Below are positions 1-55,405 of a DNA stretch of 55,405 nt, piece after piece (within the stretch, counting starts at the first letter, position 1; every line of letters starts with the position of its first letter). Under the pieces are notes generated by a model that worked only from the letters and a program-made list of their open reading frames with translations, had not been told where the DNA came from and searched no databases. This DNA comes from Candidatus Liptonbacteria bacterium (GTDB taxonomy: Bacteria > Patescibacteriota > Minisyncoccia > UBA6257 > JACOXY01): contig JACOXY010000013.1 in NCBI GenBank assembly GCA_016182095.1, positions 1-55,405 on the forward strand, read 5' to 3'. A program made the position numbers and the translations under genes.

Positions 1-340
1 CATCCAATCCCAATCTTTTTTTCGCTTCCTCATTAAACCTATTAAAGAACTGCGTGCCTGCCTTGGAAAAAAGCTCGCCTAGGTCGTGTTCGCTTATAGC
101 GGCGCTCATGTTATTTTTTTCAAACTTAACGAAGCCGGCATAAGTGGCTGCCGAAGAACTATTGTGGAGAAAAATTATTTTTGAGTTTTTTGGCGGGTTG
201 AGTTTTTTTAAAAACCCATGAAGATTGCCGTGTTTTTCATCCCAATATTTAAGAAAGTCTATCTCCTGGTCTCCAAAAATCAAGGTGGCTGCTCTTATGC
301 GCCCATCGGAACAATCTACTATATATATTCTTTCTTTCAC
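1..340 (-). CDS. Hypothetical protein, truncated by the window start
   Basis: Manually translated open frame from GTG at 340 (VKERIYIVDCSDGRIRAATLIFGDQEID...RLGLD) with no stop before base 1; extended -10 TGcTATAAT 8 nt upstream. Not in the ORF track. Confidence 0.6.
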   Translation of the reverse strand, partial: MKERIYIVDCSDGRIRAATLIFGDQEIDFLKYWDEKHGNLHGFLKKLNPPKNSKIIFLHNSSSAATYAGFVKFEKNNMSAAISEHDLGELFSKAGTQFFNRFNEEAKKRLGLD

Positions 341-412
341 TTACATTTATTATAGCATTCCATTAGAAATAACAAAGCATTATCTAAACAAAAAAAGGGG
401 CACAAAGCCTCC

Positions 413-757
413 TTAGAAACAACCGCGGGGATTGGCAGTGACGGTGAGGGTAACAGTCATAACATTAGACACAACGTCCGGAGCGGCAAATATCATAGTA
501 GAAAATTTTTGATAAGCAGACGAGAGATCTCGCAAGCGAATACAGGGATGTTTATTTATCAAACGCGCAACTTCCTTGCCAAATTTCCCGGTATGATCTC
601 CGAAAAGCTCTGCAATAGTTGCCGTTTTTTGGGCTAAAATCAAACCATGGGGAAAATCGCTTGGGGATAGAAGCACTTTGACTGGGGCTTCCGTGGCGTG
701 AGCAGAGACGCTTATCACCAAAAAAATACCCGCGAGCAAGCCAGCAATTTTCATCAT
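413..757 (-). CDS. Secreted hypothetical protein
   Basis: Start reassigned to ATG 757 behind AAGGAG; signal peptide MMKIAGLLAGIFLVISVSAHA. Confidence 0.65.
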   Translation of the reverse strand: MMKIAGLLAGIFLVISVSAHATEAPVKVLLSPSDFPHGLILAQKTATIAELFGDHTGKFGKEVARLINKHPCIRLRDLSSAYQKFSTMIFAAPDVVSNVMTVTLTVTANPRGCF

Positions 758-841
758 GCAATCTCCTTTATCAAGAACCAAAAACATTATAGGTCTTGTG
801 GCAAAAAAATCAAATTCTTGCGTACGGGACAAAACGCCGCC

Positions 842-1189
842 TCATGAGCCACGGCGGCGGGGTACGATGATTATGTCAGCATAAACAACCACCAAAGAAG
901 CGACGGATGTCAGCTGGGCGGCTAAGCTATATTCATAAATAATTCCAAGGAAAAATCCGAAAGTGAAAACTATCGCGCCAGCGAGAACGGCATTTAAAAA
1001 TTCAGCAAGGCCCGCAACAGTACCAGGGTAAGGTGAGGTATATCTCACCAGAAACGAGACTACGGCAATAAATATGACCAGAATTTCTACAGTCAAAAAT
1101 TGACCGAATCGCGCGACGGGCCCCAAGAAATGGAAAAGCAGTGAGTTCGCCAGAAGATAAAAGAGTATGCATATGCCATTTGCAAGCAT
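842..1189 (-). CDS. Hypothetical membrane protein (about 4 TM)
   Basis: Four hydrophobic segments; GAGG RBS; TGcTATAAT upstream. Confidence 0.65.
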   Translation of the reverse strand: MLANGICILFYLLANSLLFHFLGPVARFGQFLTVEILVIFIAVVSFLVRYTSPYPGTVAGLAEFLNAVLAGAIVFTFGFFLGIIYEYSLAAQLTSVASLVVVYADIIIVPRRRGS

Positions 1190-1242
1190 GTAAGCCTCGC
1201 TTTTGTTTTTAGAAGCTAAAGAAATTATAGCAGAAAATCGGA

Positions 1243-1269
1243 GTCACTCAACCATTCGCGCGGATAAAA
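1243..1269. repeat. Cassette-boundary motif, copy 1
   Basis: gtcactcaaccattcgcgcggataaaa; 25/27 match to copy 3 (4023-4053). Confidence 0.75.
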
Positions 1270-1271
1270 CA

Positions 1272-1302
1272 AAAACCCCCGTGCAAGAACGCACTAGGGG
1301 GT
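1272..1302 (-). terminator. Intrinsic terminator
   Basis: accccc-gtgc...gcac-ta-gggggt hairpin followed by a U-tract on the minus strand. Confidence 0.6.
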
Positions 1303-1323
1303 GGGTGGGGGGGGAACACAAAT

Positions 1324-1788
1324 TCAAATATTATTTGATTTCGGGTAAGGTAAGAACTGCCAGGACGCAGAAACATCCTCGCGCCAAACATATCTTGAGT
1401 GACGGCAACCATATCTTAAACAAAGCACCAGTGCTTGCTGATAAGAAGATCTCATCACGCCCTTTCTCGCGGGATCTTTTTCCAAGTCATGCCAACCAAA
1501 AAAACAGAGAATTGCGCCGAATAAATTTCGAGGATTTTTCTTTTCCGTCCAAGGTTCTATAGATTCAATGGAATAATCTTCAGTGTGTCCGAAATAATCG
1601 TGGGCATGAACGCCAGACACTTCGCAGGCATTAAAGGCATCTCTATACGAATACCGCTCTACTACCGCCCAATGACCGTAATTTTTTACTCGCACAATTG
1701 AACCCAACGGAAAGCGGTCTTCAATAATTTTGTCCTGATTTCTGGCTTTAATGATCGAATCTACCGGGCGACCAATCCAAAGCCCCAT
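1324..1788 (-). CDS. Hypothetical protein
   Basis: Start reassigned to ATG 1788 behind AGGAG; TTGACA-17-TATAAA promoter at ~1856-1828; C-terminal C/H motif (LCFFGWH...CLRYGC). Confidence 0.65.
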   Translation of the reverse strand: MGLWIGRPVDSIIKARNQDKIIEDRFPLGSIVRVKNYGHWAVVERYSYRDAFNACEVSGVHAHDYFGHTEDYSIESIEPWTEKKNPRNLFGAILCFFGWHDLEKDPARKGVMRSSYQQALVLCLRYGCRHSRYVWREDVSASWQFLPYPKSNNI

Positions 1789-1854
1789 TGCTACGCTCCT
1801 TGTCAATTTAGTATTAGGTTCTACGGCCTTTATACTACCAAATATAATTCTTGT

Positions 1855-1885
1855 CAACCGTTACGCAACAGTCGCGCGGATAAAA
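1855..1885. repeat. Cassette-boundary motif, copy 2
   Basis: caaccgttacgcaacagtcgcgcggataaaa; 26/31 match to copy 3. Confidence 0.7.
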
Positions 1886-1937
1886 TAGAAACCACGCGCG
1901 AGAATGTGCGTGGCTAAAAATCAATTATCCCTTCTTA

Positions 1938-2387
1938 TTATACATAACCGAACACACTCAGCCCCTCGAATGCCTCGTTCATTTCTCTTATTCCAATAAT
2001 TTCGAAGGTATTCCCCGCCGGCTGGAACATCTCCTCGGAATTTTCTCCATCGAAATGAAATAGTATGCGATACTGTCCCCTTTTCAGGCGATAAGTACTG
2101 ATAGTGAGAATAAAAGTACCATCTTTAGAAAGTGTAAAATTTCTTGCCCAAAGCGTTGTGAAACCGCGCTTCAACGTATAGTGAACACACGGCTCAGAAG
2201 TCACCGGAAATATTGTTTCGTCATTCCGAAGAACAGTGCCGCGGAGAATGATCTTTTCTCCACGGATAATCAGAGGTACATCAATTTTAACTTTTACACG
2301 ATATTGAGATTGATTTCCTCGGCTGAAAAGTTCAGTGATGCGTTGCGCCAAAGCTTCTTGAGTCCTCTCTGCATGCGACTTACTCAT
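1938..2387 (-). CDS. Hypothetical protein
   Basis: 149-aa ORF with GGAG RBS, own TTGACA/TATAAA promoter and a downstream hairpin (1890-1915). Confidence 0.7.
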   Translation of the reverse strand: MSKSHAERTQEALAQRITELFSRGNQSQYRVKVKIDVPLIIRGEKIILRGTVLRNDETIFPVTSEPCVHYTLKRGFTTLWARNFTLSKDGTFILTISTYRLKRGQYRILFHFDGENSEEMFQPAGNTFEIIGIREMNEAFEGLSVFGYV

Positions 2388-2417
2388 GTTAATCTCTCCC
2401 TAAATGCTTTGGGCTGT

Positions 2418-2455
2418 TGCTACCTATATTTATACTCAAAAATTACGCATTGTCA
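2418..2455 (-). promoter_or_regulatory. Sigma70 promoter, homologous to 4661-4700
   Basis: TTGACA-16-TATAAAtataggtagca. Confidence 0.6.
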
Positions 2456-2898
2456 ATTGTTGCCCTAATGCGCCTAGTTCCCGCCCCCACAGCTTCTTCT
2501 TTCAAAATACGAAAGTGTCCTATCTCCCCAGTGTGGGTCACGTGAGGGCCGCCGCAAAATTCTTTGCTATAAGCGTCTTCAATCGTTTTGCCGACATAAT
2601 ATACATTCACCATGTCGGGATATTTCTCCCTAAAGTAATACAGAGCGCCGGTTTTTTCGGCTTCGGCTTTAGGCATTACTGCTTTTTGCACCGGCAAATC
2701 TTTTGCAACTATAGAATTCACTTCGTCCTCAACTTTCTTAATTTCTTCGGGTGTGAGCTTGCGAGGAAATGTAAAATCAAAACGGGTACGCTCGGCCGTA
2801 ATGTCCGATCCCGCCTGATGAACATCGTTCCCCAAAATATTCCGCATGGCCTGCTGAAGCAGATGGGTCGCGGTGTGAAGCCGTGACCGCACCTGCAT
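2443..2898 (-). CDS. Stand-alone AlaRS editing domain (AlaX-like); paralog of the alaS C-terminus
   Basis: HTATH and CGGPH Zn-ligand motifs; about 80% aa identity to the last ~145 aa of alaS by manual alignment; TGcTACAAT upstream of ATG 2898. Confidence 0.8.
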   Translation of the reverse strand: MQVRSRLHTATHLLQQAMRNILGNDVHQAGSDITAERTRFDFTFPRKLTPEEIKKVEDEVNSIVAKDLPVQKAVMPKAEAEKTGALYYFREKYPDMVNVYYVGKTIEDAYSKEFCGGPHVTHTGEIGHFRILKEEAVGAGTRRIRATIDNA

Positions 2899-3019
2899 TA
2901 GCAGACAAAAGCATTGTAGCAAAGGTTGGCATAAAAGAAAATGAGCCTCCGGCGCTGCGAAAAAATTCGCGCCGAAGGCTCAAGGGTTAAAGAGGGACAA
3001 GCCCTCAAGGTTACAAGGT

Positions 3020-3782
3020 TCAGAACTTCCGGGACGCCCCGAGGCCAACGCTGTAGTAACGGCGGCCGTCCCAGTTGAGGACGCGGAGGCCGCGCCCGTC
3101 GAAAGTGCCGACACACGAGACGAAGCCAGCAGAGACCTTGTCGGTATTGACTGTGCGTTCCGTGCAGGCTGCCCATCGCGATCCGTTGGGGCGCTCGCCG
3201 GTCTTCTTGAAGACGAGGATGTCCTTCGTCGTCTCGACGATGGTCGTCGGCACCTCGTACTCGGGCGGGAGCATCGCTACCTGTTCTTCAGGCGTCTTGT
3301 CCGTTGAGCCGGGAACGATTTCCTTGTGCACGAGGTACCAGTGACGCCGCATCGTTACCACATCGGTGTGGGGCTGACCAACATGCCACGGACTGGTGTT
3401 GAAGTAGAACTTCGGCTGACCCGTTGCCGGGTGCAATTCCATCCACTTCGCCACCGTGAGCGGATCGCCGTTTATGCAGTCGATTCCATAGAAACCGAAG
3501 TGGCAATCCTTCACCACTTTGCCGCAGAGCAAGCAGACAGAGGTGAGAACATCTTCACCCCACGGGAACTTCCCGGCTTCGCGGATCTGCTTCTTCACGA
3601 ACTTGGCGTCGTAGTAGCTCATCCAGTCGGCATCGGTGAAGATGTTGCGACCGAGAACCACCCGAGCCAACCTCGACTCGATGGAACCAACGAGACCCGA
3701 CTGCCTTCTCCAACGCGGAGACGCTTTCCTCGAACTCGCCCTTGGTCATTGTCCAGAGACCGCTTGTCTGTCTTGTGCTCAT
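3020..3782 (-). pseudogene. DGR-target-like (C-type lectin/FGE-like C-terminus) gene with a frame break near 3700
   Basis: GGAGG-ATG at 3782 (MSTRQTSGLW...) is out of frame with the main ORF 3020..3670, which ends VGTFDGRGLRVLNWDGRRYYSVGLGASRKF; GC-rich. Confidence 0.6.
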
Positions 3783-4019
3783 GGCACACCTCCAGTTTTT
3801 GATTTGCTCTCCACATCCTTTAGAGACTTTAGAGAGCGGATTACCCCTTGCCGCGGGGCTGCGGTCCCATCTCGGAATTTGAGACGAGCGTTTTGGGAAC
3901 TATTTTGGTTTATAGCGCCGAAAACGCTCGTCTCAAGATATTCATAACCTTGTTTGTTCAATTTTCAAAGGTGCTATTTTAACTGTGTTAAGTATAGCAA
4001 TATATTGCCTAAATGTCAA
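3783..4019 (-). promoter_or_regulatory. Promoter and long structured 5' leader
   Basis: TTGACA-17-TATACT; boxA-like GCACCTTTGAAAA; perfect 16-bp inverted repeat ttgagacgagcgtttt/aaaacgctcgtctcaa; further small stems; GGAGG. Confidence 0.65.
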
Positions 4020-4022
4020 GGG

Positions 4023-4053
4023 CAACCGTCACTCAACCATCGCGCGAATAAAA
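4023..4053. repeat. Cassette-boundary motif, copy 3
   Basis: caaccgtcactcaaccatcgcgcgaataaaa, next to the terminator hairpin at 4055-4086. Confidence 0.75.
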
Positions 4054-4119
4054 TAAAATCCCCCACGCAACAATGCATTGGGGGGAGAAAAAATTCCCAG
4101 GGACAAAAGGTTAAACAGA

Positions 4120-4635
4120 TTACTTGCGAACGGCGAGGAAACGAACGCTCCCGACCCAGCTGTACTCAAACCAGTACAAGAACAAGTAACGCCCCAAGTC
4201 GTCCCTGTAAAGGTACGCCACATATCGATTGCCGTGCACCTCACACACCGAACCAATGGTAACAACCGGGAAGTGCAACTGGACATCCGGGTACTTCACG
4301 CCAAACGCAAGAAGCTCGTGCAATGTGGCTGGGCGATAACCCCGATCATCAAGTTCCATGAGAGCACCATCAGATGAAACCATACGATTGAAAGAAATAA
4401 GTTCTGTCTGAACTTCTGCTCTGCCATGTTTTTTGCTGTGAAAGTTGCTGGAATTAACACTCTTGCTTGCCCAACTGTAGTGACCAAGTTCTACCAATTT
4501 TTCTACTGATATATCGTAGTTAACGGTAACAGGGTAACTGACCGCTGATCGATCAGCGGCAAGGGAGATGCAAGATAAAACGGCGAAAAGAAAAGCAATG
4601 GTAGCAAATAGAGAAAAGAGCTTATTCCGCGACAT
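4120..4635 (-). CDS. Exported protein with DGR-target-like C-terminus
   Basis: Signal/TM N-terminus; GYRPATLHELLAF motif; ends YLFLYWFEYSWVGSVRFLAVRK; GAGGAGG RBS. Confidence 0.75.
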   Translation of the reverse strand: MSRNKLFSLFATIAFLFAVLSCISLAADRSAVSYPVTVNYDISVEKLVELGHYSWASKSVNSSNFHSKKHGRAEVQTELISFNRMVSSDGALMELDDRGYRPATLHELLAFGVKYPDVQLHFPVVTIGSVCEVHGNRYVAYLYRDDLGRYLFLYWFEYSWVGSVRFLAVRK

Positions 4636-4660
4636 TACTGCCTCCTCAAGTTTTGTGATT

Positions 4661-4700
4661 TGCTATCTGTATTTATACTCAAAAAATTGTGGCTAGTCAA
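4661..4700 (-). promoter_or_regulatory. Sigma70 promoter downstream of alaS
   Basis: TTGACT-17-TATAAAtacagatagca. Confidence 0.6.
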
Positions 4701-4752
4701 CTCCGAAGCTCTGGTCGGAGCTCCGATCTCGCTATGCGAGCATCGGAGCCGT

Positions 4753-6594
4753 TTAATCTACTGAAGCGCGGATGCGGCGAACTCCCGCTCCAACGGCTTC
4801 TTCTTTCAAAATGCGAAAGCGCCCTATCTCTCTAGTGTGGGTTACATGCGGGCCCCCGCAGAATTCTTTGCTATAAGCATCTTCAATCGTTTTGCCGACA
4901 TAATATACGTTTACTGGATCAGGATATTTTTCTTTGAAAAAATACAGCGCGCCGGTTTTTTTTGCCTCCTCTATCGGCATTTCTTTGAAATGCACCGGCA
5001 TATCCCGCGCTATCACTTCATTTACTTCTGTCTCAATTTTTTTAATTTCTTCTGGGGTTAATTTTCTATGGTATGTAAAATCAAAGCGGGTGCGCTCGGC
5101 GGTAATGTCAGACCCCGCCTGATGTACTTCGTTACCCAATATATTTCTCAAGGCTTGTTGCATCAAGTGCGTCGCAGTATGTAGCCGCGTTACTTTCTTT
5201 AACTCTTCCTCATCCCCTGCTTTCAATTCACCCGTATCTAAAATAAGCCCGTGTCCACCGAATTTTTTCTCCAGTCCCGCGCGTGATTTTTCCTGATGCT
5301 TTTGGTATGCTTCATCGAATTCTTTTTCTGTCCGCTCGCTAAAACTGAACCCCCATTTCTCCATCACCATTTTCATCACCTCGAAATCAACTCCGTGCGT
5401 CTCTCTTATCCTGAATAAAATAGACCCGTCAATATCAGCCACATTATTTTTTACAACAACATTTGGTAGCAGCCTTTCAGGATCAACGCCTCCAATAAAT
5501 CGACTATAAAGTTTTTTCAAATCTGCTACGGTTCCAGTCAAAATTTTTGAGTATTTTTCTACCTCATCTTGCATAATACTCATCATTCGATCCCCGTTGT
5601 TAAGCAAATCAGGATAAAAATGCTTATATATATCAATAATTATGGAAACTGGATTCTGAAAAAAATTTTTGTCAGGTCCGGCGCCCACATCAAGATAGTG
5701 GGCCGTGAGAGCTCTCCTTAATAAGCGCCTGGGGATATAACCTCGTCCCTCTTTACCAGGCAAAACACCATCACTGATCAAAAAAACTGCCGCGCGAAGA
5801 TGATCAACGATCAACCTAATTTGACCTATGGGTTTATCTCCTTGAATTTCAATTATCGAATGCATTATTGGCTGCAACAAATCCGTCTCAAAAATATTAT
5901 TCTTCTCCTGCGAAACCATAACCAGACGTTCCAGTCCCATGCCCGTGTCAACACCCGGGGTCTTTAATTTTTCTAATTTTCCGTTTTTACAATAATATTC
6001 ATTAAAGACAATGTTCCAAATTTCAACGCCGTTTATATAAATTTCTGTGGTCGGGCCGCACGGGCCTTCGTTCCCGGTCGGGCCCCAAAAATTGTCTGTT
6101 CTGCCAAATTTTTTTATGCTTTTTACTCCCAGCGATTTCCAAATCTCTTCGGATTCAGTATCAGCAGGAACTCCATCACCACCTTCAAAAACGCTTACAT
6201 AATCTATCGCAAGCCCCATTTCTTTGGTAATAAAATCATGCGCATAGGTTATCGCCCCTTTTTTGAAATATCCGCCCTTGGGCGAAACTGGCTCGCCGGG
6301 CTTATAGCCAAACGAAAAATTCCCTAGCATTTCAAAAAAAGTAAGGTGTGACTCATCCCCCACCTCGTCAATGTCGGAAGTGCGGAATGACTTTTGAATA
6401 GAAGCGGTGTTTTTGCTTCCAAAATCCTTCATTGGGTCAGCTTCGCCCGTGTAATACTTCTTAAACTGCTGCATCCCAGCGGTCGTTAAAAGCACCGACG
6501 GGTCGTCAGGAATAAGTGATGACGAAGACACGATAGTATGTCCGCGTTCTTTGAAAAAGGCGAGAAACTTTTTACGGATTTCTTCTGAAGACAT
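4753..6594 (-). CDS. alaS: Alanine--tRNA ligase (short form lacking the C-Ala domain)
   Basis: AGMQQFK, HLTFFEMLGNFSFG, EIWNIVF, DTGMGLER, HTATH/CGGPH. Confidence 0.97.
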   Translation of the reverse strand: MSSEEIRKKFLAFFKERGHTIVSSSSLIPDDPSVLLTTAGMQQFKKYYTGEADPMKDFGSKNTASIQKSFRTSDIDEVGDESHLTFFEMLGNFSFGYKPGEPVSPKGGYFKKGAITYAHDFITKEMGLAIDYVSVFEGGDGVPADTESEEIWKSLGVKSIKKFGRTDNFWGPTGNEGPCGPTTEIYINGVEIWNIVFNEYYCKNGKLEKLKTPGVDTGMGLERLVMVSQEKNNIFETDLLQPIMHSIIEIQGDKPIGQIRLIVDHLRAAVFLISDGVLPGKEGRGYIPRRLLRRALTAHYLDVGAGPDKNFFQNPVSIIIDIYKHFYPDLLNNGDRMMSIMQDEVEKYSKILTGTVADLKKLYSRFIGGVDPERLLPNVVVKNNVADIDGSILFRIRETHGVDFEVMKMVMEKWGFSFSERTEKEFDEAYQKHQEKSRAGLEKKFGGHGLILDTGELKAGDEEELKKVTRLHTATHLMQQALRNILGNEVHQAGSDITAERTRFDFTYHRKLTPEEIKKIETEVNEVIARDMPVHFKEMPIEEAKKTGALYFFKEKYPDPVNVYYVGKTIEDAYSKEFCGGPHVTHTREIGRFRILKEEAVGAGVRRIRASVD

Positions 6595-6692
6595 GAGAGT
6601 AACTTAACACAAAAAAAAGACAAAAAAAAGGCGGCCTATGCCGCTAATTTACTTATCTTTCATTTCCTCGGAATATTTCTGAAAACAAATTC

Positions 6693-6893
6693 CTATTCTA
6701 ATTTTTTAAAAAGATACAGATTATAGAAATAGATACCAATGGCAATAAGAGCGGCAACAAGTCCAAGAGAACCAACGGCAAGATTATAAAAGCTATAGTT
6801 ATAGGGAAAGTTGGCGTTGTCAAAAATAAAAACACTCGCTACCCACGCCAGCAAACAACAACCAGTAATTCTGTTATATAATCTTGGGCTCAT
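6693..6893 (-). CDS. Small membrane protein
   Basis: Two hydrophobic segments; start uncertain. Confidence 0.45.
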   Translation of the reverse strand: MSPRLYNRITGCCLLAWVASVFIFDNANFPYNYSFYNLAVGSLGLVAALIAIGIYFYNLYLFKKLE

Positions 6894-7152
6894 GCTTACA
6901 TCAGCTCTCAATCCATATGTTCTGCGGCTAGTCAATCACATCTATGGCGCGGAGGGATTAGTGTCTGCTTACCGGCAAGCGGGGAAGTGAACAAAATTTA
7001 TCAATTGAACTCCCGTGTCGTCACAAGAGTGACTAAAGCTCCTGCGAACTCTCGAATCAGGTATCCTGCCCAAGTTTTTCTACAGAAAAATTTAGGCGGG
7101 TAGGGGCGGTCCAAAATTTAAAAAAATCACCTCACATGAGGTGATTAATTTA

Positions 7153-7773
7153 CTATCCCGAGCAGGATTTCCACTCTCCGACAAGTATCTTTTCGCAATT
7201 TCTACAGAGCCAACCAGGAAATGTTTTTTCAGATCCGTCTTTACAGGTATAAGTTCTTTTTATGGGGAAGTTGTGCGCTATGTGATACGGCGCTGCGTTG
7301 TAGGCGTCATCGCCCCAGTGCCAATTCATGTCGAATTGATAATCGCAATTGATACATGGAATGTACCGATGTGTAAAATATTCAGACATCCCATTTTTTA
7401 TTGCCCAATCGCGGTTTAGCGGTTCTTGCGGCCGCGCTCCCTTACAAACTTCTGCCGGAGTATATCTCTTCAGTTTTTTTACCGCCCAAGCGTATGCATT
7501 CTGATAAGCGATAATCTGCTCTGGCAGAATCTGCGCCACTACTTGGCAGCTTTGGTCTGATGGAGAATAGCCGACTTCCCGGACTTTAATACCCGCTCTC
7601 CGCATTTCATCTGCGATTTTTTCTGATACACGGGTAAATCGTCTTACGCGGAGGTCATATTTTGTATCATCCCACCAGCAGTATAGGGGAGCAATAAGGT
7701 TAAGAGGTTTTATGATTACATAAATAATAAAATAGGTTACGATGACAGAAAGCACCCTTTTGATCGATTTCAT
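7153..7773 (-). CDS. Hypothetical protein with CxxC motifs
   Basis: 206-aa ORF; N-terminal TM; CINC and CRNC; terminator aatcacctca/tgaggtgatt at 7126-7147. Confidence 0.7.
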   Translation of the reverse strand: MKSIKRVLSVIVTYFIIYVIIKPLNLIAPLYCWWDDTKYDLRVRRFTRVSEKIADEMRRAGIKVREVGYSPSDQSCQVVAQILPEQIIAYQNAYAWAVKKLKRYTPAEVCKGARPQEPLNRDWAIKNGMSEYFTHRYIPCINCDYQFDMNWHWGDDAYNAAPYHIAHNFPIKRTYTCKDGSEKTFPGWLCRNCEKILVGEWKSCSG

Positions 7774-7884
7774 TCAACCCCCCAGTTTTACCAAGAACTA
7801 AAAATATAATGCCACATTATCGTTGATAGTTCAATCAGCAGGCGCTCCCCACTATTCGCTAGCCACTATTCACTAGTTACTTTC

Positions 7885-8349
7885 TTACTCTGCTACAGTA
7901 ACTTTCCCAAAAACAGATGCAAGCAGGTGGTTATGATATCCCCACTCGCCAACTTCGTTGAAGGTGAAACTATAAGATTCCCCCGGCTTCACGGCTCGGC
8001 AAGCATCAAACATTTTACTCTCGTTACTCGTGCCGCACTTTTCAATATCGGAACCAGGATAGACAGTGTGCGTGGGATGCATCGCTGTCGCCGGCCAAGT
8101 ATCTTGAGTTCCGTCATTCTCCCAAGTAACCGTGTCGCCTTTTTTAACGGTCAATTCTCGGGGAGTGAAAGCTGTCCCGTCAAAACTAACCACCCAAGTC
8201 TTATTCACGCTTACCGGAGAGAGCGGCGGCTCAACTGGAGGAGTAACATTCGGCGCATCCGCAGGAGCATTTGAATTTTGATAGAAAACGAACCCGCCGA
8301 CTAAAACCACTACCATAACTACAAACCACGATAAAGATTTGTTATTCAT
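7885..8349 (-). CDS. Membrane-anchored cupredoxin/plastocyanin-like protein
   Basis: FTPRELTVKKGDTVTWEN, HPTHTVYPG, FTFNEVGEWGYHNHL. Confidence 0.85.
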   Translation of the reverse strand: MNNKSLSWFVVMVVVLVGGFVFYQNSNAPADAPNVTPPVEPPLSPVSVNKTWVVSFDGTAFTPRELTVKKGDTVTWENDGTQDTWPATAMHPTHTVYPGSDIEKCGTSNESKMFDACRAVKPGESYSFTFNEVGEWGYHNHLLASVFGKVTVAE

Positions 8350-8475
8350 GATATTAAATCAAAATTTAAAAATCAAAAATAAAAATTTTGGATTATCTGC
8401 CTTTGGCAGATCCCATAATAATTTTACATTTTGAATTGCAATTTTGACTTTTGCATTTTGAATTTTTAATTAATT

Positions 8476-9651
8476 TTAGTGTCCTTCCAGCGCTTTCGCG
8501 TGTTCATGCTGGCGGATTTTCTCCAGCGCTTTGGCTTCAATCTGCCTGATGCGTTCGCGCGTTACGCCAAAAACTTTGCCGACTTCTTCCAAGGTGTGCT
8601 GGACTCCATCCTCAAGCCCGAATCTCATGGCTAATATTTTCTGCTCCCGGTCGCTTAGGGTTCCTATAATTTCTCCTATTTTATCTTTTAGGAGAGCGTT
8701 GGAGGCCGCCTGTGGCGGCGTAAGATTTTTTTCGTCAGGTATAAATTCCGAAAGCGTTGACTCATCGTCTTCGTCGCCAATAGGAGACTCCAAAGACATT
8801 ACATCCTGCGAAATTCTCTGTATATGCCGCACCTTGTCAACATCCGTGTCCATCTCCACGGCAATTTCCTCCGCCAATGGATCGCGGCCCAGCTCCTGCA
8901 TTAGGCGGCGCTTGGCTTGAGTGTAGCGCGATATGGTCTCAACCATATGAACAGGAATTCTGATAGTTCTTGATTGGTCGGCAAGAGCCCTGGTAATCGC
9001 CTGCCTAATCCACCAAGTGGCATAGGTTGAAAATTTGAATCCTTTTCGATAATCAAATTTTTCCACGGCTTTTGAAAGGCCGATATTGCCTTCCTGTATA
9101 AGATCTAAGATGCTCAAGTTTGGGCTCCTGTTCACATAGCGTTTTGCAATTGACACCACCAAACGCAAATTGGCGCGGATTAATTTCTGCCGCGCCTCTT
9201 CGTCGCCAGCCTCCGATTTTTTGGCGAGTTCTTTTTCGTCGTCCTTGGTTAAAAGAGGCGTTTTGCCGATCTCTTTAAGATACATCTGTACGGAGTCGGG
9301 AAGATCTCCGACTTCGGTTGCCATCTGAAGTTCTTTTTCGGTTACCTCGTCCTTGGGCAGATCAATAAGCTGGGTTGTTTCAACAACTTTAATATTAGCG
9401 ATTTCCAGTTTTTCATAAAGTGCTTCTAAAAAAGAGAGGTCTTTTTCTATGTTGGGAAAATAAGACAAAATCTCCGAGTCGGTAACAAACCCGCGGACAC
9501 GGCTCCCTTGTATGAGCTCGCTTAAGGTTGCTTCGTTAAAAACCGGTTTTTTTTCGCGAACCGCCTTTTTAGCCGCTTTGGCTTTGGGCTTAGAGGCTCT
9601 TTTTTTGGTTTTTGGGGATTTTTTGGACATGCGTAGTTTTTTAAAATTCAT
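8476..9651 (-). CDS. rpoD: RNA polymerase primary sigma factor
   Basis: [50 protein letters not shown]; follows dnaG. Confidence 0.96.
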
Positions 9652-17644: not shown

Positions 17645-17718
17645 TAACATTATGATAACATTTTTTGAAGTTTATATCCTGGAACCCACCCTGGCTTTGT
17701 TAACTATTGATTCATATA

Positions 17719-17732
17719 TTAACATATGTTAA
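17719..17732. promoter_or_regulatory. Palindromic operator candidate overlapping the -10 of the HTH-Fic operon
   Basis: TTAACATATGTTAA perfect palindrome overlapping TAAAAT. Confidence 0.5.
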
Positions 17733-17745
17733 AATAGCATCACCT

Positions 17746-18000
17746 ATGGAAAAAGAATTTTATTCAACGGCGGAGGCCGCCAAACTGCTCCGCGTAAGCA
17801 GAGTTTCAATATTCCAAAAGATTAAATCAGGGAACATAAGGGCGCAAAAGGTTGGGCGCAATTTTATCATTAAAAAAAGTGATTTATTTGAGGCGTTGGG
17901 CAATGTCTTAAGCAAAGAAAAGAAACAAAATGTCGACAGGGCGGTAGCAAAGGCGCTGCGGGATTACGGCGAAGTATTTAAAAAGTTAGGCAAGGAGTAA
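17746..18000 (+). CDS. Excisionase-like HTH_17 protein, probable antitoxin
   Basis: YSTAEAAKLLRVSR...IKSGNIRAQKVGR; C-terminal helix (YGEVFKKLGKE); coupled to the Fic gene. Confidence 0.8.
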   Translation: MEKEFYSTAEAAKLLRVSRVSIFQKIKSGNIRAQKVGRNFIIKKSDLFEALGNVLSKEKKQNVDRAVAKALRDYGEVFKKLGKE

Positions 18001-18002
18001 AG

Positions 18003-18431
18003 ATGAAAGTAAAAAATCTCGCATTAAAAGAAGTTGAATATAGCGCTTATAGGCTGGCAAAAAAGTTTATGTCTTGGAATGAGCCCATTCTCGATTTTGG
18101 AACACGTTTCCCAGAAGTGCTGGAAAGCTGTCTTTTGGTTCCGTTTCAAACATACGCGCGAAAAAATCTTTACCGGGGATTGATTAACAAAGCGGCCATT
18201 CTTTTTTATCTAATGATTAAGAATCATCCGTTTGAGAACGGCAATAAAAGAATCGCGGTAATGACGCTATTGCTGTTTCTCTATAAAAATAATGCATGGA
18301 TTAAGGTTAGCGATAATGCATTATATAAAATCGCTGTCCGAGTCGCCGAAGGATCTCCGCAGGAAAAAGATTTTTATCTGAATGCCGTTCAAGGATTTCT
18401 AAAAGAAAATATGGTGCGGATAAAGAAGTAA
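18003..18431 (+). CDS. Fic/Doc-family toxin
   Basis: HPFENGNKR Doc-type motif. Confidence 0.9.
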   Translation: MKVKNLALKEVEYSAYRLAKKFMSWNEPILDFGTRFPEVLESCLLVPFQTYARKNLYRGLINKAAILFYLMIKNHPFENGNKRIAVMTLLLFLYKNNAWIKVSDNALYKIAVRVAEGSPQEKDFYLNAVQGFLKENMVRIKK

Positions 18432-28435: not shown

Positions 28436-31400
28436 TTATTCTTCAAGCCCCACCCGCATAAACCAATCGGCGCTCGCGGTAGGATAGGGAATTCTAAAAG
28501 ACGGGCAATAACTGCCGTTGCATTCGCCTGATGGGCCAGAGGCAGCCACACCATCCTCAAAATCTCCGGCAGTTGAGATTGCGTTCTGGAAAGAGGTCCG
28601 GTAATAACCGACTGGATTGTCATAGCGCGCGTCAAGCACAAACCAATAAGTTTGATTGGCTTCGACTGTTACCGGATCGGCAAAATAAAACACACTGTTT
28701 CCGGATTCCGTCTCGGCAATTTTGTTTGAAAAATCCGGCTTATTTGCTCCATTATCATCATAAACAGCGAGTCTATAAGAGGCGTCATCACCTCCGTTGT
28801 TCCGCTGTATATCAAGCAAAACTTTATTAAAACTTCCCTCTTCTCCTGAAGATATACTCTGTAAACTCGCCGAGTCAATCAGTCCCCCGCCGCACACCGA
28901 ACAATTAATATTAATCCTGCCCCAAGGATAACTCCAGCCGTCTTGATTCAACTGCTCTATTAAAAATCGGATTGGCGGGCGAGACCATTCTTTAGTTAGT
29001 ATATTGGAATAATTTCCAAAATCATCCCTAGCCCTTACGCCTATCAAAAATCGTTCGCCAGGTAAAACTACTCTGCTCGTCGTGGTAGCATGCCCCAAGT
29101 TTTGCCAATCTTGATCTAAAAAATCAGCGTGAGCCGAGTTTGACTCGGAGGAGGTGGAAAAATTAACTTCATATTTGACAAGGTTCGGCTCTGTATCTGG
29201 GTCTTGCGCATCGCTCCAATTAAGATTGATGCTTCCGGATTTAGCATATTCCACATTAATCTCTCCGCTTAATTCGGGTGCCAAGTGTTCCGGCGGATTG
29301 CCGTTAAAAAAATATTTGGTTTTATCAACCGTGAGCAGTTTGAAATTATTAAGTGCCCCGTCCTCAACCCTCGTCCCCTGCGGATAGCTTCTGTAAAAAC
29401 CGTAATAGGCAACAGTGAGATATCCATCCGCCCCAAAATCAGCATCACCATAATTACCTATCCTGAAAATGAGTCGGTTTAGAGTACCGGCCAAATATTT
29501 ACCGAACCGCAGCGCGTCGTTCATAAATCCTCCCCAAATGCCGCACTGGCTTTCGTCGTCAGGCAAAAGCAGAGAAGACTTGTAGCTTAAGATGCCAACA
29601 CAGCTCTCATATTCCGTAAAAAGCGCGTCGCTTAAATTTTCGGGTGTGGGACGCGCGCTATCTAAGAATTCATCTTTCGGCGCTTCTTTGTTTTTGTAGA
29701 AAACTAGAACTTTCCAATTAGCTCCGTGATCCCGCGAAGTTAAGTCGGGCAAAAACGGGTAATTATTATATCGTAATTCAACTACCGGCGCATTGCCAAA
29801 AATTGAGCTTGTCGGGGCCTGATAAAAATAAATTCCCGATAAAATTCCCGGCACTTCAAAATCTTTGAAAACTTCGTCGCTCGCAAGTCCGTCTTTATCT
29901 GCCGCTTGAATTGAAAATCTATAGCCTCGTCCAACTTCGTCAATCCGTCTTTCAAAAGCAGTTGAGGTGCCGTTATATATAGAAACGCCAGAGCTATTAT
30001 ATTCTTTAACTTCGTAAGTAAAATAGTTAGCTACTGAACTAGATTCAATAGTTCCCGAGCTTGTCGAGGGACTACCACGCCAATTAAAAATCAGCGCGAG
30101 AGAGCTCGTGCTGAAGCTAACTTCCAAATCATTTACGGCGGCCGGGGCATCGCGCGGCTCCGGCAAACTCGTGCTATTTTGCGGTTTGGGAATTTCGCGC
30201 GCTTCAAAATCATTGTTGGAGTCGGCGTCGCATCCATTCCCCAAAAACTCGTTTTCATTTTGCGGCAAAACACAGGAACTGTTTTTGAAAGCTTTGCGCT
30301 CCAAGCTCTTGCCAGCTTCAATTTCGCCATATGTTATGTCATCAACTACTTCCGCAGTCGCGTGATCGCCGTTGTAAAGCAAAATTGAGTTATTGGTGTA
30401 AGCGATACTCGCCGATTGGGCGGAGTATCTTAAATCCGGCTCCACGTTCCCATTATAAGAAGGACTTGCGATTAGAAAAAATCTTTTGGGGAGAATCGTT
30501 CCGGCGAAAACTCCGTCATCCACAAGGTTGCTCTCACTGCCCGAAGAAGTTTTTTTGCGTAGCTCCCATCCGGTTAAATCAACGGCTGTTTCGGTTGGAT
30601 TATAAAGTTCAATAAACTCATAATCGGAAGCGTTAGTGGCGCCAGCTTGAATTTCGCTTATTACAATATGATTCGTTGTCATATTTGTCGTATCAGACAT
30701 ATTAGACGTATCCGTCGCGCTGGAAGCATTGGCAGTATTGTCATCTGCTTGAGTTGAAGAAGGTGGCGGTGAAGCCGACGCGCCGCCACCGGACCCGCCA
30801 GAAGGATAAGTTGAGTTTTCCGCCTTGGGAGTGCCGTTCGTGACCGAACTCGACTGCCATCCAAAACCATAAATACGCTCCATGGTATTTTTGGTGGAAT
30901 TATTTCCGGCAGGCCAACTGCTTGCGGCAATAACCTCATCCATTAAGCCGCATTTATTGTCAAAAAGGCGAAGACCCTCGCCAGTATTCGCGAGCGCGCC
31001 GCTATAAATGAAGTCAGCAGCAATACCAGGCACCGTGTCATCGTCGGCGCGCTCCAAAAGCAAAAACTTGCCGGCTTCGAGCTTAGTGCCAGAATCAATA
31101 GTGATATGAATTTGTTCCTCCTTATCTATAACTTGCCAGCCGGAAGCATCGACCGGGGTACCGCTTATGTTTTTCAATTCAATCCATTCGTCATTCGCGC
31201 TATTTGTCGTACCCATCCAGGCAACTTCATTTATAATAATCCCCGCGCGGCTTGGAGTGCCGGGGACGCCATATGAGCAAGTTGAAGTCCGATCTCCCGG
31301 AGGTAGTTCCTCCGCTGGAGGTGTGACCTCCCCATATTGGCTCTCCTCGTCAGACGCTCCAGCCACTTCTCCGGTTTGCGTTTTAGGAAGAATAGTAACA

Positions 31401-32632
31401 GAAACTGAAGTTCCTAATTCCTCATAATCATTAGACGTATCAGATACGTCATTATTTAATGGAATAACTTCTATTAGATTCGCGGATTCTGTCACCGAAC
31501 CGCCTCCATTATCGCCAAACAACGAATCCCACCAACCGATTACAGCATCAATTGTATTTGCAAAAAATGATTTTTCCGCCTCATTATTATAGCGGCCATC
31601 TTTCTCGGCCGCGGCAACTTCTTTAAAAAACAGATCAATTAAGCCGGCACCGTGCCGAACTGCGCTGGTTGAGAGGAGGGACCAGTAGTTTTTTAGAACA
31701 AGACTATCGGGATCTGATAAGGTTATGTCAGAACGAAGCACCGTAACCAAATCACCGTATCTTGCATACATAAAGAGCAGCTGCGTATTTCCTTCTTCAT
31801 CTTCTTTAACAGCAAAAACTCGGCCACTAATTTTTGTCGGAGAGTTTGAGCTCGGAATAGGCAATTCGTACCCGCTTGATACCCCAATTCTATTTTGGCT
31901 ATAAAAATTATTATTTGAGTACTTCGCCATCACGTTGAAATAATTATCAACGCTATCCTGAACAATCGGCGCCATCCCTGTTAAGCGTGTTTTTAATTCT
32001 TTGTCGGGACTTTCCAAACCAAAAGCTCCGGCGAAATTTTCATATGGGCTCCTATCCCATTCGCTCCCAGGATGGGGATCATTTCGGGTGTGATCGGGAA
32101 CTGATGCGTCCTCTAATAAGTGCAGGACGTGGCCCAAGATAAACATGGCTTTTTCTTTGTCGCCTCGCGCGTAGTACTCCACTGCCCTCTCCCAGGTAAA
32201 GTCCGACTCGGTGGTTAGCGCTCCCAACTGTTTTTCCTGCCAGGCGGTTAAAATAGAAGTTATAAAAGCATAAGCCTTATAGCGAGTCTCTGTTTGCTTC
32301 TCTGCATCCTCGGCCCACTCTTTTGACCTATAGCCATCTCCATAAATAGATGTGAGCCCGGTGTCGTTAATAGGATCATAAAAATGATTAAGCCACCTTG
32401 GCGCGTCATCCTCGCGCCTTGAGCCGTCAATCAAGAATGGTTTTAAGTTTTCCGAAATTTTATTATTCTGATAGCGCTCGTTATAAAAATCAAAAATTTC
32501 CGAGGTTAAGTAGGCGTGCGTCCCAACTCCATACGCCAGCGCCTCGTTTGCACTTACAAAAGCTCCGACAGTAATCGGAGCAATAAACAGAGCAAAAAGT
32601 GATATTTTATTTCTTGCACCAAGGCGCTTCAT
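28436..32632 (-). CDS. Large secreted multidomain protein: Zn phospholipase C/P1-nuclease-like domain, two lamin-tail domains, FN3-like modules
   Basis: Signal peptide; YGVGTH, NHFYDP, GHVLHLLEDASVPDH; IIINEVAW..EWIELKN and VISEIQ..EFIELYNPT. Confidence 0.8.
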   Translation of the reverse strand: MKRLGARNKISLFALFIAPITVGAFVSANEALAYGVGTHAYLTSEIFDFYNERYQNNKISENLKPFLIDGSRREDDAPRWLNHFYDPINDTGLTSIYGDGYRSKEWAEDAEKQTETRYKAYAFITSILTAWQEKQLGALTTESDFTWERAVEYYARGDKEKAMFILGHVLHLLEDASVPDHTRNDPHPGSEWDRSPYENFAGAFGLESPDKELKTRLTGMAPIVQDSVDNYFNVMAKYSNNNFYSQNRIGVSSGYELPIPSSNSPTKISGRVFAVKEDEEGNTQLLFMYARYGDLVTVLRSDITLSDPDSLVLKNYWSLLSTSAVRHGAGLIDLFFKEVAAAEKDGRYNNEAEKSFFANTIDAVIGWWDSLFGDNGGGSVTESANLIEVIPLNNDVSDTSNDYEELGTSVSVTILPKTQTGEVAGASDEESQYGEVTPPAEELPPGDRTSTCSYGVPGTPSRAGIIINEVAWMGTTNSANDEWIELKNISGTPVDASGWQVIDKEEQIHITIDSGTKLEAGKFLLLERADDDTVPGIAADFIYSGALANTGEGLRLFDNKCGLMDEVIAASSWPAGNNSTKNTMERIYGFGWQSSSVTNGTPKAENSTYPSGGSGGGASASPPPSSTQADDNTANASSATDTSNMSDTTNMTTNHIVISEIQAGATNASDYEFIELYNPTETAVDLTGWELRKKTSSGSESNLVDDGVFAGTILPKRFFLIASPSYNGNVEPDLRYSAQSASIAYTNNSILLYNGDHATAEVVDDITYGEIEAGKSLERKAFKNSSCVLPQNENEFLGNGCDADSNNDFEAREIPKPQNSTSLPEPRDAPAAVNDLEVSFSTSSLALIFNWRGSPSTSSGTIESSSVANYFTYEVKEYNSSGVSIYNGTSTAFERRIDEVGRGYRFSIQAADKDGLASDEVFKDFEVPGILSGIYFYQAPTSSIFGNAPVVELRYNNYPFLPDLTSRDHGANWKVLVFYKNKEAPKDEFLDSARPTPENLSDALFTEYESCVGILSYKSSLLLPDDESQCGIWGGFMNDALRFGKYLAGTLNRLIFRIGNYGDADFGADGYLTVAYYGFYRSYPQGTRVEDGALNNFKLLTVDKTKYFFNGNPPEHLAPELSGEINVEYAKSGSINLNWSDAQDPDTEPNLVKYEVNFSTSSESNSAHADFLDQDWQNLGHATTTSRVVLPGERFLIGVRARDDFGNYSNILTKEWSRPPIRFLIEQLNQDGWSYPWGRININCSVCGGGLIDSASLQSISSGEEGSFNKVLLDIQRNNGGDDASYRLAVYDDNGANKPDFSNKIAETESGNSVFYFADPVTVEANQTYWFVLDARYDNPVGYYRTSFQNAISTAGDFEDGVAASGPSGECNGSYCPSFRIPYPTASADWFMRVGLEE

Positions 32633-53944: not shown

Positions 53945-54031
53945 GGAGGCGTGGCCGAGTGGCTTAAGGCAGCATCCTGCTAAGATGTTAGGGGAGAAAT
54001 CCCCTCGAAGGTTCGAATCCTTCCGCCTCCG
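53945..54031 (+). tRNA. tRNA-Ser(GCU)
   Basis: GCATC-CTGCTAA-GATGT; long variable arm; G discriminator. Confidence 0.95.
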
Positions 54032-55298: not shown

Positions 55299-55405
55299 AG
55301 AATTGTATTGGCAAACGAGTGTACAAATGAAGAAAAACTTCATTTGTACAAAAAAGTCGGTTCGAACTTTTTAATTAAGGATCGAACCGTCTTTTTTGAG
55401 CCACG

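Follow-up and report, generated by a model that had tools for sequence, protein, structure and literature searches.

An accessory islet lies behind alaS

Bacteria of the candidate phyla radiation (CPR) have tiny genomes and few classical mobile elements, and how they gain accessory genes is an open question. Here we describe a run of small genes behind the alanyl-tRNA synthetase gene alaS of an ultra-small bacterium from groundwater, Candidatus Liptonbacteria bacterium (assembly GCA_016182095.1). The window, meaning the whole stretch of DNA that was analysed, is the complete 55.4-kb contig C16 (JACOXY010000013.1, 55,405 nucleotides); the genome, G000 below, comprises 893 kb in 23 contigs and is 97.5% complete. 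An earlier note on this DNA had described the run as an integron-like array of autonomous gene cassettes, punctuated by three copies of a motif of about 30 bp, and had taken this motif for the recombination or junction site at which cassettes were acquired one after another.

Between alaS and a pilM/ftsA-like gene, positions 413-4752 form an accessory islet that is specific to this lineage. Every gene here is encoded on the minus strand, and in reading direction the order is alaS, promoter P1, gene A, module copy c3, the B cassette, a second alaS 3' end (alaS'), promoter P1', gene C, module copy c2, gene D, module copy c1, gene E, gene F and the pilM-like gene. The borders, the promoter behind alaS and the intact cargo genes are the following, DGR standing for diversity-generating retroelement.

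4753-6594, minus strand: alaS, 613 aa, with catalytic and editing domains (Pfam tRNA-synt_2c, 1e-92, and tRNA_SAD) and without the C-Ala domain
4672-4700, minus strand: promoter P1 behind alaS, TTGACT (4700-4695), 17 nt, TATAAA (4677-4672), read from the sequence and predicted to drive gene A
4120-4635, minus strand: gene A, 171 aa, with a signal-peptide-like N-terminus; an orphan DGR variable-protein gene of a second family
1938-2387, minus strand: gene C, 149 aa, an orphan
1324-1788, minus strand: gene D, 154 aa from the ATG at 1788 behind an AAGGAG ribosome-binding site, a near-orphan
842-1189, minus strand: gene E, 115 aa, a small membrane protein (Atlas scores below 0.9)
413-757, minus strand: gene F, 114 aa, signal-peptide-like, with its promoter at 813-786 (TTGATT-16-TATAAT) and no module before or after it
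2-340, minus strand: start of the conserved pilM/ftsA-like gene, the distal border of the islet, whose remainder lies on contig C21

The AlaS proteins of relatives measure 573-658 aa. At the distal border, the first 99 nt of the window are identical to positions 8315-8413 of contig C21; the two contigs adjoin, and the break falls inside the pilM-like gene just past the islet. Through C21 the order continues with the rest of the pilM-like gene, a 460-aa gene and rpsM-rpsK-rpsD-rpoA-rplQ-rplM-rpsI. The islet has housekeeping neighbours, namely rpoD, dnaG, alaS, rpoA and ribosomal protein genes.

Comparison of gene content behind alaS, which the earlier note had proposed as a check, revealed differences among relatives. 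In G001 and G002, two of the three same-family genomes, about 150 nt separate alaS from the pilM-like gene, behind which come the 460-aa gene and rpsM-rpsK-rpsD-rpoA, so that the 4.4 kb are absent from both. The third, G003, holds a single small gene at this place. In other families of the order the junction is occupied by 0.4-4.4 kb of varied content, some of it housekeeping. A tblastn search (E<=1e-3) of 97 related alaS loci, 17 of them from species representatives and 80 from metagenomes, detected none of the six cargo genes A-F, and the motif, too, was absent from these loci. The nearest alaS relatives in this comparison are 70% identical among species representatives (G033) and 65% among metagenome contigs, with no relative at genus level. 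Alignment of the alaS-downstream spacers of G001, G002, G003 and G033 to the spacers of the window gave no common sequence. No tRNA gene was found in 1-9000, and an Rfam scan of 1-7000 gave nothing relevant, its single match (E 0.16) lying inside alaS.

On the upstream side, at 6693-7773, two orphan genes (80 aa, and 206 aa and Cys-rich) stand between a plastocyanin-like gene and alaS. Since G002 has only about 245 nt there, this side has also gained genes, in this case without the module.

The motif is part of a terminator-promoter module

The three motif copies lie on the minus strand within 2.8 kb, at 1243-1269 (c1), 1855-1885 (c2) and 4023-4053 (c3), as a sequence search confirmed. The exact 13-nt core CGCGCGRATAAAA has 3 matches against 0.57 expected, and 3 of 100 shuffles reach 3; it occurs twice more in the genome, on contigs C9 and C13, without the rest of the unit. 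The copies are degenerate, and within three mismatches the 31-nt consensus of the earlier note matches copy 3 only. Similarity among the copies begins about 30 nt earlier, in the preceding terminator hairpin, and extends to GGTTGAGTGAC(GGTTG). The resulting unit of 59-64 nt, here called the module, consists of a terminator hairpin, a T-tract, a 12-nt CG-rich palindrome and the -35 region of the next promoter.

4023-4086, minus strand: module c3, hairpin at 4062-4085, T-tract, palindrome ATTCGCGCGAT, then GGTTGAGTGACGGTTG
1855-1917, minus strand: module c2, hairpin at about 1890-1915, T-tract, ATCCGCGCGACT, then GTTGCGTAACGGTTGACA, whose last bases are the -35 box of the gene D promoter
1243-1301, minus strand: module c1, hairpin at 1276-1298, T-tract, ATCCGCGCGAAT, GG and TTGAGT, the -35 box of the gene E promoter

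Pairwise, the units agree at 49/58 (c1-c3), 44/63 (c2-c3) and 40/57 (c1-c2) positions. Searched against the whole genome, only the c1-c3 pair is significant by itself (38 nt at 89%, E 5e-4). The more diverged c2 reaches E-values of 0.13-0.57, and its position is part of the case for counting it as a member. Searched with a profile of the unit that was derived from the three copies themselves, the 893 kb yield only these sites (E 1e-14 to 2e-17), the next match having E 0.2. The unit is confined to three unit boundaries of this islet rather than scattered over intergenic sites, and relatives differ in gene content here, so that neither of the outcomes named as refuting by the earlier note was observed.

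Its description of the copies as standing behind a terminator and before, or overlapping, a promoter also holds at the level of prediction. Each copy is preceded by a hairpin with a T-run (-28.4, -26.8 and -20.6 kcal/mol; z -2.8, -2.6 and -0.8, the last at copy 1) and is accompanied by -35 and -10 boxes. At c1 the palindrome ATCCGCGCGAAT is followed by 2 nt, TTGAGT, 16 nt and TGCTATAAT, which gives the promoter TTGAGT-16-TATAAT (1251-1224). At c2 the TTGACA at its end forms, with TATAAA 17 nt on, the promoter of gene D (1857-1829). The promoter next to c3, TTGACA-17-TATACT (4019-3991), belongs to the B cassette, which has replaced the downstream part of this copy. Because the motif is embedded in a module of terminator, palindrome and -35 box, its position can be explained without a role in recombination.

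Could the core of the motif instead be an operator, that is, a transcription-factor site upstream of the -35 box in a small regulon, kept alike by selection for binding? The core is near-palindromic in all three copies (ATCCGCGCGAAT in c1, ATTCGCGCGAT in c3 and ATCCGCGCGACT in c2). The exact 12-mer ATTCGCGCGAAT, a perfect palindrome, occurs twice on contig C1 (32670-32681 and 33011-33022), bracketing the gene of an 86-aa ArsR-type protein that would be the candidate regulator. The upstream C1 copy (palindrome, 2 nt, TTGAAT, 16 nt, TATTAT) parallels c1 (palindrome, GG, TTGAGT, 16 nt, TATAAT), and all intergenic perfect or near-perfect copies of the core stand in promoter-like or palindromic elements. 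These include four perfect palindromes of 36 nt with the same core (ATTCGCRCGAAT), intergenic at C1 32046, C1 37083, C3 5561 and C18 19928, with which the motif shares the 12-nt core only. Against an operator, c3 is one base short of the palindrome and c2 has two mismatches, which would disturb a dimeric site; moreover, the distance to the -35 box in use varies from 2 nt (c1) to 13 nt (c2). The similarity also runs past the palindrome into the hairpin and GGTTGAGTGAC, so that the copies are related by descent. We therefore regard an operator as unlikely.

The second alternative follows the earlier note in taking the motif for a recombination or junction site, here one of the site-specific kind. 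In this case the recombinase would act in trans and could be the Xer-like protein encoded on contig C9 or a serine recombinase at the far end of the window, in a system that is integron-like or resembles integrative mobile elements exploiting Xer (IMEX) and pdif modules without a local integrase. Several features are as such a site would have them: the three copies are co-oriented and found at unit boundaries and in this hotspot only, relatives lack the cargo, and the copies are 70-84% identical despite unrelated flanking genes. Their similarity is also reticulate, since c1 and c3 share the hairpin and GGTTGAGTGAC and c2 and c3 share ACGGTTG, and chimeric sites would resemble that.

The module is, however, present at only three of the eight junctions of the islet, those without it being alaS|A, B|alaS', alaS'|C, E|F and F|pilM, and the homology among copies stops at different bases in each copy. 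In agreement with the earlier note, the motif shows no attC-like fold: folded as single-stranded DNA (ssDNA) it reaches 0 to -4.4 kcal/mol (z -0.5 to +1.5), no better than shuffles, and its sole symmetry is the 12-nt palindrome. Nor is an integrase nearby. No recombinase domain was detected in the 12 open reading frames (ORFs) of 1-7800 or anywhere within 49 kb of the islet; the nearest, 49 kb away, is the large serine recombinase, whose gene at 53988-55343 encodes Resolvase, Recombinase and Zn-ribbon domains, and the single PF00589 (tyrosine recombinase) gene of the genome lies on contig C9. A dif/Xer-like reading of the motif itself was dropped, as by eye its halves are not inverted repeats of each other.

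Searches beyond this genome gave no support for a wider site either. The strict degenerate pattern TTTTATYCGCGCGN{2,3}KGTTGMGTRAC had 0 matches in genome_contigs, metagenome_contigs and viral_contigs, a weak sign of absence because such a pattern is narrow and records of this genome may be excluded there, and the unit profile had no significant match in 154 related loci, including 26 B-family and 11 A-family loci. The same lack of matches led us to drop the idea that the motif is part of DGR cassettes. On this evidence, and on that of the junctions described below, we consider a site-specific recombination site distinctly unlikely.

The cargo includes orphan targets of diversity-generating retroelements

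The earlier note was right that the cargo genes are co-oriented and mutually unrelated (best blastp E 0.098) and that each has its own promoter. Every unit has a predicted -35/-10 match and a ribosome-binding site; units A, B, C and D also have their own predicted terminators, and E and F have promoters with no terminator between them. For genes A-F we detected no Pfam, PHROG or NCBIfam family (best PHROG E 0.012). Gene C matches only itself among 5.8 billion proteins (E<=1e-3), and gene D matches 4 proteins among 1.84 billion representatives at the same threshold, its own cluster and three at 32-46% identity.

Gene A has 13 homologues, one of which, on a public contig of 1785 nt, is 96% identical, and relatives of the gene occur in 92 of the 401 genomes of the order. 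All four A relatives that were inspected (L146, L149, L155 and L156) have an Asn-rich copy of their last ~45 residues, a template repeat (TR), 200-680 nt downstream of the gene. By these Asn-rich copies, gene A is identified as a DGR target of a second family. Its own 893-kb assembly holds no TR matching it, so that it is orphaned here.

The sizes of A, C and D (149-171 aa), their common orientation and their common spacer would suit tandem paralogues whose coding parts have diverged beyond recognition and whose spacers stayed conserved. These three proteins have no detectable similarity to one another, A belongs to a widespread family of DGR targets, C is an orphan and D has its own three distant relatives; moreover, spacers 70-84% identical beside dissimilar proteins would need extreme differences in rate. 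Descent from a common ancestral gene is thus highly improbable.

Gene B belongs to a longer cassette that differs from its surroundings in composition (57-63% GC against about 43% around it in the GC profile). Its features are listed below, with VR for the variable region.

2872-4022, minus strand: truncated DGR-B cassette, 57-63% GC, with 78-86% nucleotide identity to distant CPR loci
4019-3991, minus strand: cassette promoter, TTGACA-17-TATACT
3879-3936, minus strand: leader hairpin with 25-bp arms, conserved
3699-3782 and 3020-3698, minus strand: the two pieces of the broken gene B, with the VR at about 3022-3130
2940-2982, minus strand: terminator (-36.2 kcal/mol, z -5.5)
2921-2913, minus strand: spacer promoter TGCTACAAT, followed by the first ~40 nt of the spacer

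Gene B has 211 homologues of about 285 aa, up to 82% identical; compared with them it lacks about 90 nt at 3698|3699, where the frame is shifted. The whole cassette, with leader hairpin, terminator and some 110 nt that follow, has counterparts of 78-86% nucleotide identity in loci of Kuenenbacteria, Yanofskybacteria and Paceibacterota. Genes of this family have a GC content of 0.47-0.64, above that of their flanks (0.31-0.57) in all 26 loci where flank sequence was available.

The nature of the family is indicated by locus L121, in which a 110-nt second copy of the gene's 3' end lies downstream, followed by an Avd-like gene and a reverse transcriptase (RT) gene; all 17 mismatches between TR and VR fall at TR adenines. 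In L123 the arrangement is the same except that avd and RT are deleted. As the L121 homologue has a TR with adenine-only differences together with Avd and RT, gene B is a variable-protein gene of a CPR-type DGR. The islet's cassette lacks TR, avd and RT, no TR-like match to its VR was found in the 893-kb assembly, and the two RT-Avd loci of the genome lie on contigs C1 and C3, away from the islet. Since the genome has no matching TR for either gene and its RT-Avd loci are on other contigs, A and B are both orphan DGR targets, and the B cassette is in addition broken in the contig and truncated. The model of the B homologue P0002 (pLDDT 80.5) has as its best Foldseek rows Mtd variants and snake-venom C-type lectins, at weak E-values of 1.2-2.2.

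The left end of the B cassette, placed at 4020-4022 by alignment to L119 and L120, abuts copy c3 to within 0-2 nt, 4023 being the last base common to c2 and c3. Because it adjoins that base, the cassette has landed in the -35 region of module c3, bringing its own promoter. This coincidence is what a site-specific recombination site would predict; however, no such motif stands upstream of the B cassette in seven other genomes.

Two further observations concern the B family. The leader hairpin is conserved in L119-L124 and L128, with apparent compensatory changes (GAGCG/CGCTC against GAGCA/TGCTC) and no Rfam match. Downstream of the gene, the family has a conserved promoter and a spacer of about 100 nt, and then the template repeat.

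A displaced alaS end marks junctions made away from the motif

The earlier note had overlooked the DGR nature of A and B, the restriction of the motif to three of eight junctions, and a duplication of the alaS 3' end. The latter consists of three elements.

2443-2898, minus strand: ORF alaS', 151 aa, repeating the last 145 codons of alaS (2452-2886) fused to the DGR spacer
2429-2456, minus strand: promoter P1' behind alaS', TTGACA (2456-2451), 16 nt, TATAAA (2434-2429), homologous to P1 and predicted to drive gene C
2558-2604, minus strand: near-identical patch of 47 nt, with one mismatch to alaS 4862-4908 and 29 identical nt (2576-2604 = 4880-4908)

The repeat 2453-2883 is a diverged direct copy of 4757-5187 (77-78% identity, no indel), and the homology continues into the promoters, where a 26-nt stretch behind alaS (4660-4685) is 92% identical to that behind alaS'. 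The proximal 2.3 kb of the islet are therefore bracketed by two diverged alaS 3' ends, each with its downstream promoter, and hold gene A and the broken B only. G001 and G002 have no such duplication.

Between alaS' and alaS, 106 of 435 nt differ, 67 of them at third codon positions; the copy is in frame, without stops or indels, and dN/dS is 0.087 at a dS of 1.57. The low dN/dS and the lack of stops and indels argue that the two copies diverged as parts of working genes and are not the products of a decaying local duplication. At the protein level alaS' shares 81.25% identity with the resident end and 80.4% with G003; for the resident end, the values are 78.6% with G001 and 77.1% with G033. 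The split is thus about as deep as that among the genera of the family, and the ends therefore come from different lineages and not from a recent duplication in place. A tree of the alaS C-terminal domain has little resolution: the resident end joins the G033 clade (81/96), alaS' falls into a polytomy and the two copies are not sisters. In the N-domain tree G000 groups with G033 at SH-aLRT 83, and family f1 is not monophyletic.

The repeat around the 47-nt patch is 76% identical, and runs of at least 29 nt arise in 261 of 20000 codon-position shuffles. Searched against 99 relatives, the 29-mer has a best match with 4 mismatches and is thus without conservation at the DNA level. The patch is a candidate site of crossover or gene conversion.

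At its other end alaS' meets the DGR cassette. The window follows the cassette consensus through the terminator and the promoter TGCTACAAT to ...CTAATGCAGGTGCGGTCACGGCTTCAC and then continues as alaS (ACCGCGACCCATCTG = T-A-T-H-L). The last cassette-consensus bases in the window are ...GGTCACGGCTTCAC, where seven other cassettes go on with spacer. The join falls at RLH, at about 2872-2880 (alaS codon ~468): the cassette consensus ends CGGCTTCAC and the resident alaS has CGGCTACAT (R-L-H) there, so the join lies in a microhomology of at most 9 nt. The alaS repeat and this microhomology join show that at least two junctions of the islet were made by homology-anchored and illegitimate recombination and not at the motif, which speaks against a site-specific recombination site.

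The same junction has given alaS' what an expressed gene might need, as the DGR spacer supplies an ATG (2898) and the TGCTACAAT promoter, with no Shine-Dalgarno sequence. The protein keeps HTATH and CGGPH, so that the HxxxH and CxxxH zinc-site motifs are intact; it matches NCBIfam alaS (2e-50) and AlaXM (4.5e-26), and it aligns over residues 3-133 with residues 4-134 of chain 1v4p_A, which has 157 aa (E 3.4e-9). Judged by these features, alaS' could be a newly born trans-editing gene or merely a scar that has not yet decayed. If it is expressed, the locus would have caught in the act the origin of a free-standing editing protein of the AlaX type.

A similar scar is present in two of the 97 further alaS loci, and hence in 3 of 98 with this one. 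In L080 (8300-8720) and L023 (G028:C8), alaS is followed by a spacer of about 110-150 nt and a second copy of its last 33-58 codons, and a 54-nt piece containing a GGGGGAAC...GTTCCCCC hairpin is common to both spacers. The scar in these two loci looks like the trace of a small element directed at the 3' end of alaS, and its recurrence marks that end as a repeated target in the order.

Independent assembly reproduces the junctions

Logan contigs from four runs of one study, possibly the source data, were compared with the window; they test the assembly and not the biology. Pieces covering 1-2836, 1224-3628, 2957-3628 and 3698-7000 match with 0 differences and span every module as well as both alaS junctions. 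The pieces listed for each of the four runs end at 3628 and begin again at 3698, and those from 3698 carry 187 extra letters that are not in the window. Because the pieces break at the deletion junction, the internal deletion and frameshift of gene B (3698|3699) may reflect faulty assembly or a minority variant. Further breaks, at 2575-2604 and 4908, fit the 29-nt exact repeat.

Short contigs about 90% identical to the window at 928-1091 (gene E), 1521-1835 (gene D) and 3349-3520 (gene B) are present in the same runs, and on this account a sister population seems to carry at least these three genes. The presence of such variants, and the fact that the window is a metagenome contig and starts at an assembly-graph overlap, raise the question of whether the alaS duplication and the mosaic are a strain or species chimera. 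With a second assembler reproducing the pieces without a difference in up to four runs, and with them every claimed junction except that inside gene B, a chimera is hardly credible.

Among the joints listed, none links two motif copies or the organism's two alaS ends. A site-specific recombination site might have been expected to leave copy-to-copy joints, although contigs drop rare forms and cannot show them. Mean word depth over B and A was 192/227 and 143/169 in runs X3 and X4 against 84/103 in the flanks, and equal in X1 and X2. A copy of the insert in another genome might give such an excess; contig depth cannot rank genes, however, and we draw no inference from it.

A proposed piecemeal accretion at the alaS 3' end

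The explanation that we favour, and to which we give about an even chance, is that the islet is a hotspot of piecemeal accretion, where moron-like units are added by general recombination and share a locally copied terminator-promoter module, and not an array of the integron type. It is based on a footprint in which foreign DNA lies between a border of alaS homology, containing a near-identical patch, and a microhomology join; genes for ComEC and DprA are present in the genome.

On this model, DNA of a related organism (an alaS end with its promoter, gene A, the module and a DGR remnant) would enter by recombination anchored in alaS homology, with the 47-nt patch as the candidate crossover, and the other end would be closed by an illegitimate join in microhomology. 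The route might be homology-facilitated illegitimate recombination (HFIR) of DNA taken up from outside, or a Campbell-type insertion of a fragment circularised through microhomology; either would leave one alaS 3' end displaced as alaS'. The three module copies would most likely stem from local copying, or from re-use of the same punctuation as genes were added or exchanged, and the module may also serve as homology for exchange of the RecA type.

Of the earlier note's interpretation, the supported parts are then a zone of accretion, a motif confined to boundaries and one breakpoint at copy 3; a dedicated or integron-like site is unsupported, given a motif at three of eight junctions and joins of other types. 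A dedicated site is a less likely reading than re-used punctuation because there are junctions without the module, the homology ends are ragged, neither a structure nor a recombinase is found, and the motif is absent from the 154 loci and the three collections.

Several points weigh against piecemeal accretion. ComEC and DprA also match in most control genomes. The order of events and the donor are inferred from one genome, with no relative at genus level. An anchor of 76% identity is a poor substrate for RecA, and the 29-nt run has p ~0.013. The alaS trees are poorly resolved and do not group the three same-family genomes, and thus do not show which end is native. Promoters and terminators are predictions from consensus or folding: the promoter scan gave 9 sites against 10.4 expected, and the terminator at copy 1 has a z of only -0.8. 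Passive duplication fits poorly with copies that are 70-84% alike beside unrelated ORFs, which suggests selection on the module or recombination through it, the latter not far from what the earlier note had proposed. Finally, the left-end breakpoint of the B cassette coincides with the edge of module c3.

In a bolder reading, the module would be the junction of a cassette-capture process without a local integrase, used as substrate by a recombinase acting in trans or by RecA on DNA taken up; a second one is that the same events created a complete AlaX-S-like gene. We hold these to be very unlikely. If the first were true, any gene landing between two modules would be terminated and newly provided with a promoter, and ultra-small CPR genomes would possess expressed arrays at fixed hotspots, among them the alaS 3' end, a functional analogue of integrons with autonomous cassettes. 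As an exchange point, the module would offer a new and simple route to such arrays.

The locus offers a legible record of gene gain, in which an insertion is anchored in an essential gene at its 3' end and has one junction in microhomology. It flags the alaS 3' end as a recurrent insertion scar (3/98 loci), and its insert carries two orphaned DGR targets, from a cassette family that circulates at about 80% nucleotide identity among distant CPR lineages. The case also illustrates that general recombination can assemble a patchwork which, to judge by its sequence only, resembles an integron array.

Relation to known systems

For integrons and clusters of attC sites lacking integron-integrases (CALIN), we used criteria from Cury et al. 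2016 (PMC4889954). Of four features, the islet lacks three (intI, attC and promoterless cassettes with a common Pc promoter) and has the fourth, co-oriented sites separating unrelated genes. It resembles these systems in its co-oriented, unrelated small genes, its recurring short sequence, its confinement to one hotspot and its variable content among relatives. It differs in that there is no intI, the repeat has no ssDNA fold and no R/L-box architecture, the units are read from promoters of their own and not from a common Pc, and the repeat stands at three of eight junctions and contains a terminator and a -35 box.

The islet can be compared to a row of phage morons or to a flexible island of the additive type. 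Phage morons (Cumby, Davidson and Maxwell 2012, PMC3594210) are likewise independent promoter-gene-terminator units between conserved genes that spread horizontally, and gene B of the islet has a deviant GC content. In contrast to morons, the islet lies in a housekeeping segment of a chromosome and not in a phage, with several units in a row and a common spacer module. The likeness to CPR DGRs (clade 2 of Roux et al. 2021, PMC8144416) is that the A and B families in relatives have a 3' VR and a downstream TR, with adenine-specific differences and Avd and RT shown in L121. The difference is that A and B of the islet are orphans, B being internally deleted in the contig and cut in the spacer.

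Elements that replace the 3' end of a gene offer a further parallel. Element e14 and phage 21 reportedly insert in the 3' end of icd of E. coli and bring a replacement end. In the islet, a diverged direct repeat of the alaS 3' end brackets the insert, with the gene intact and the other end orphaned; the repeat contains an identical stretch of 29 nt, and the scar recurs in 2 of the 97 further loci. The islet, however, has no integrase, its distal join is an illegitimate one in a DGR spacer, and the insert measures only 2.3 kb. Tycheposons or tRNA-anchored island arrays (10.1101/2020.12.28.424599) are related to these elements.

We know of no demonstration of HFIR in CPR bacteria. It has been described for naturally transformable bacteria (PMC6382021). 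The locus resembles its products in having one end homologous (alaS) and the other in a short GC-rich microhomology, with foreign DNA beside the anchor and with ComEC and DprA present; it differs in that there is a footprint only and that the anchor is 76% identical outside the 47-nt patch.

For the displaced end, the closest counterpart is AlaX-S (1v4p, 1wxo, 157 aa), with the whole chain of which the 151-aa alaS' is colinear, HxxxH and CxxxH being kept. Unlike AlaX-S, alaS' is a recent fragment of a bacterial alaS, and its first 6-9 codons and its promoter come from the DGR spacer.

Other features of the window

Two loci outside the islet may be recorded. At 17707-18431, between transketolase and pentose-phosphate genes, a small HTH_17 gene precedes a 142-aa Fic/DOC gene in a toxin-antitoxin-like arrangement. 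The stretch 28436-32632 encodes a protein of 1398 aa, probably a large surface protein, whose matches are to lamin-tail (LTD) domains only.

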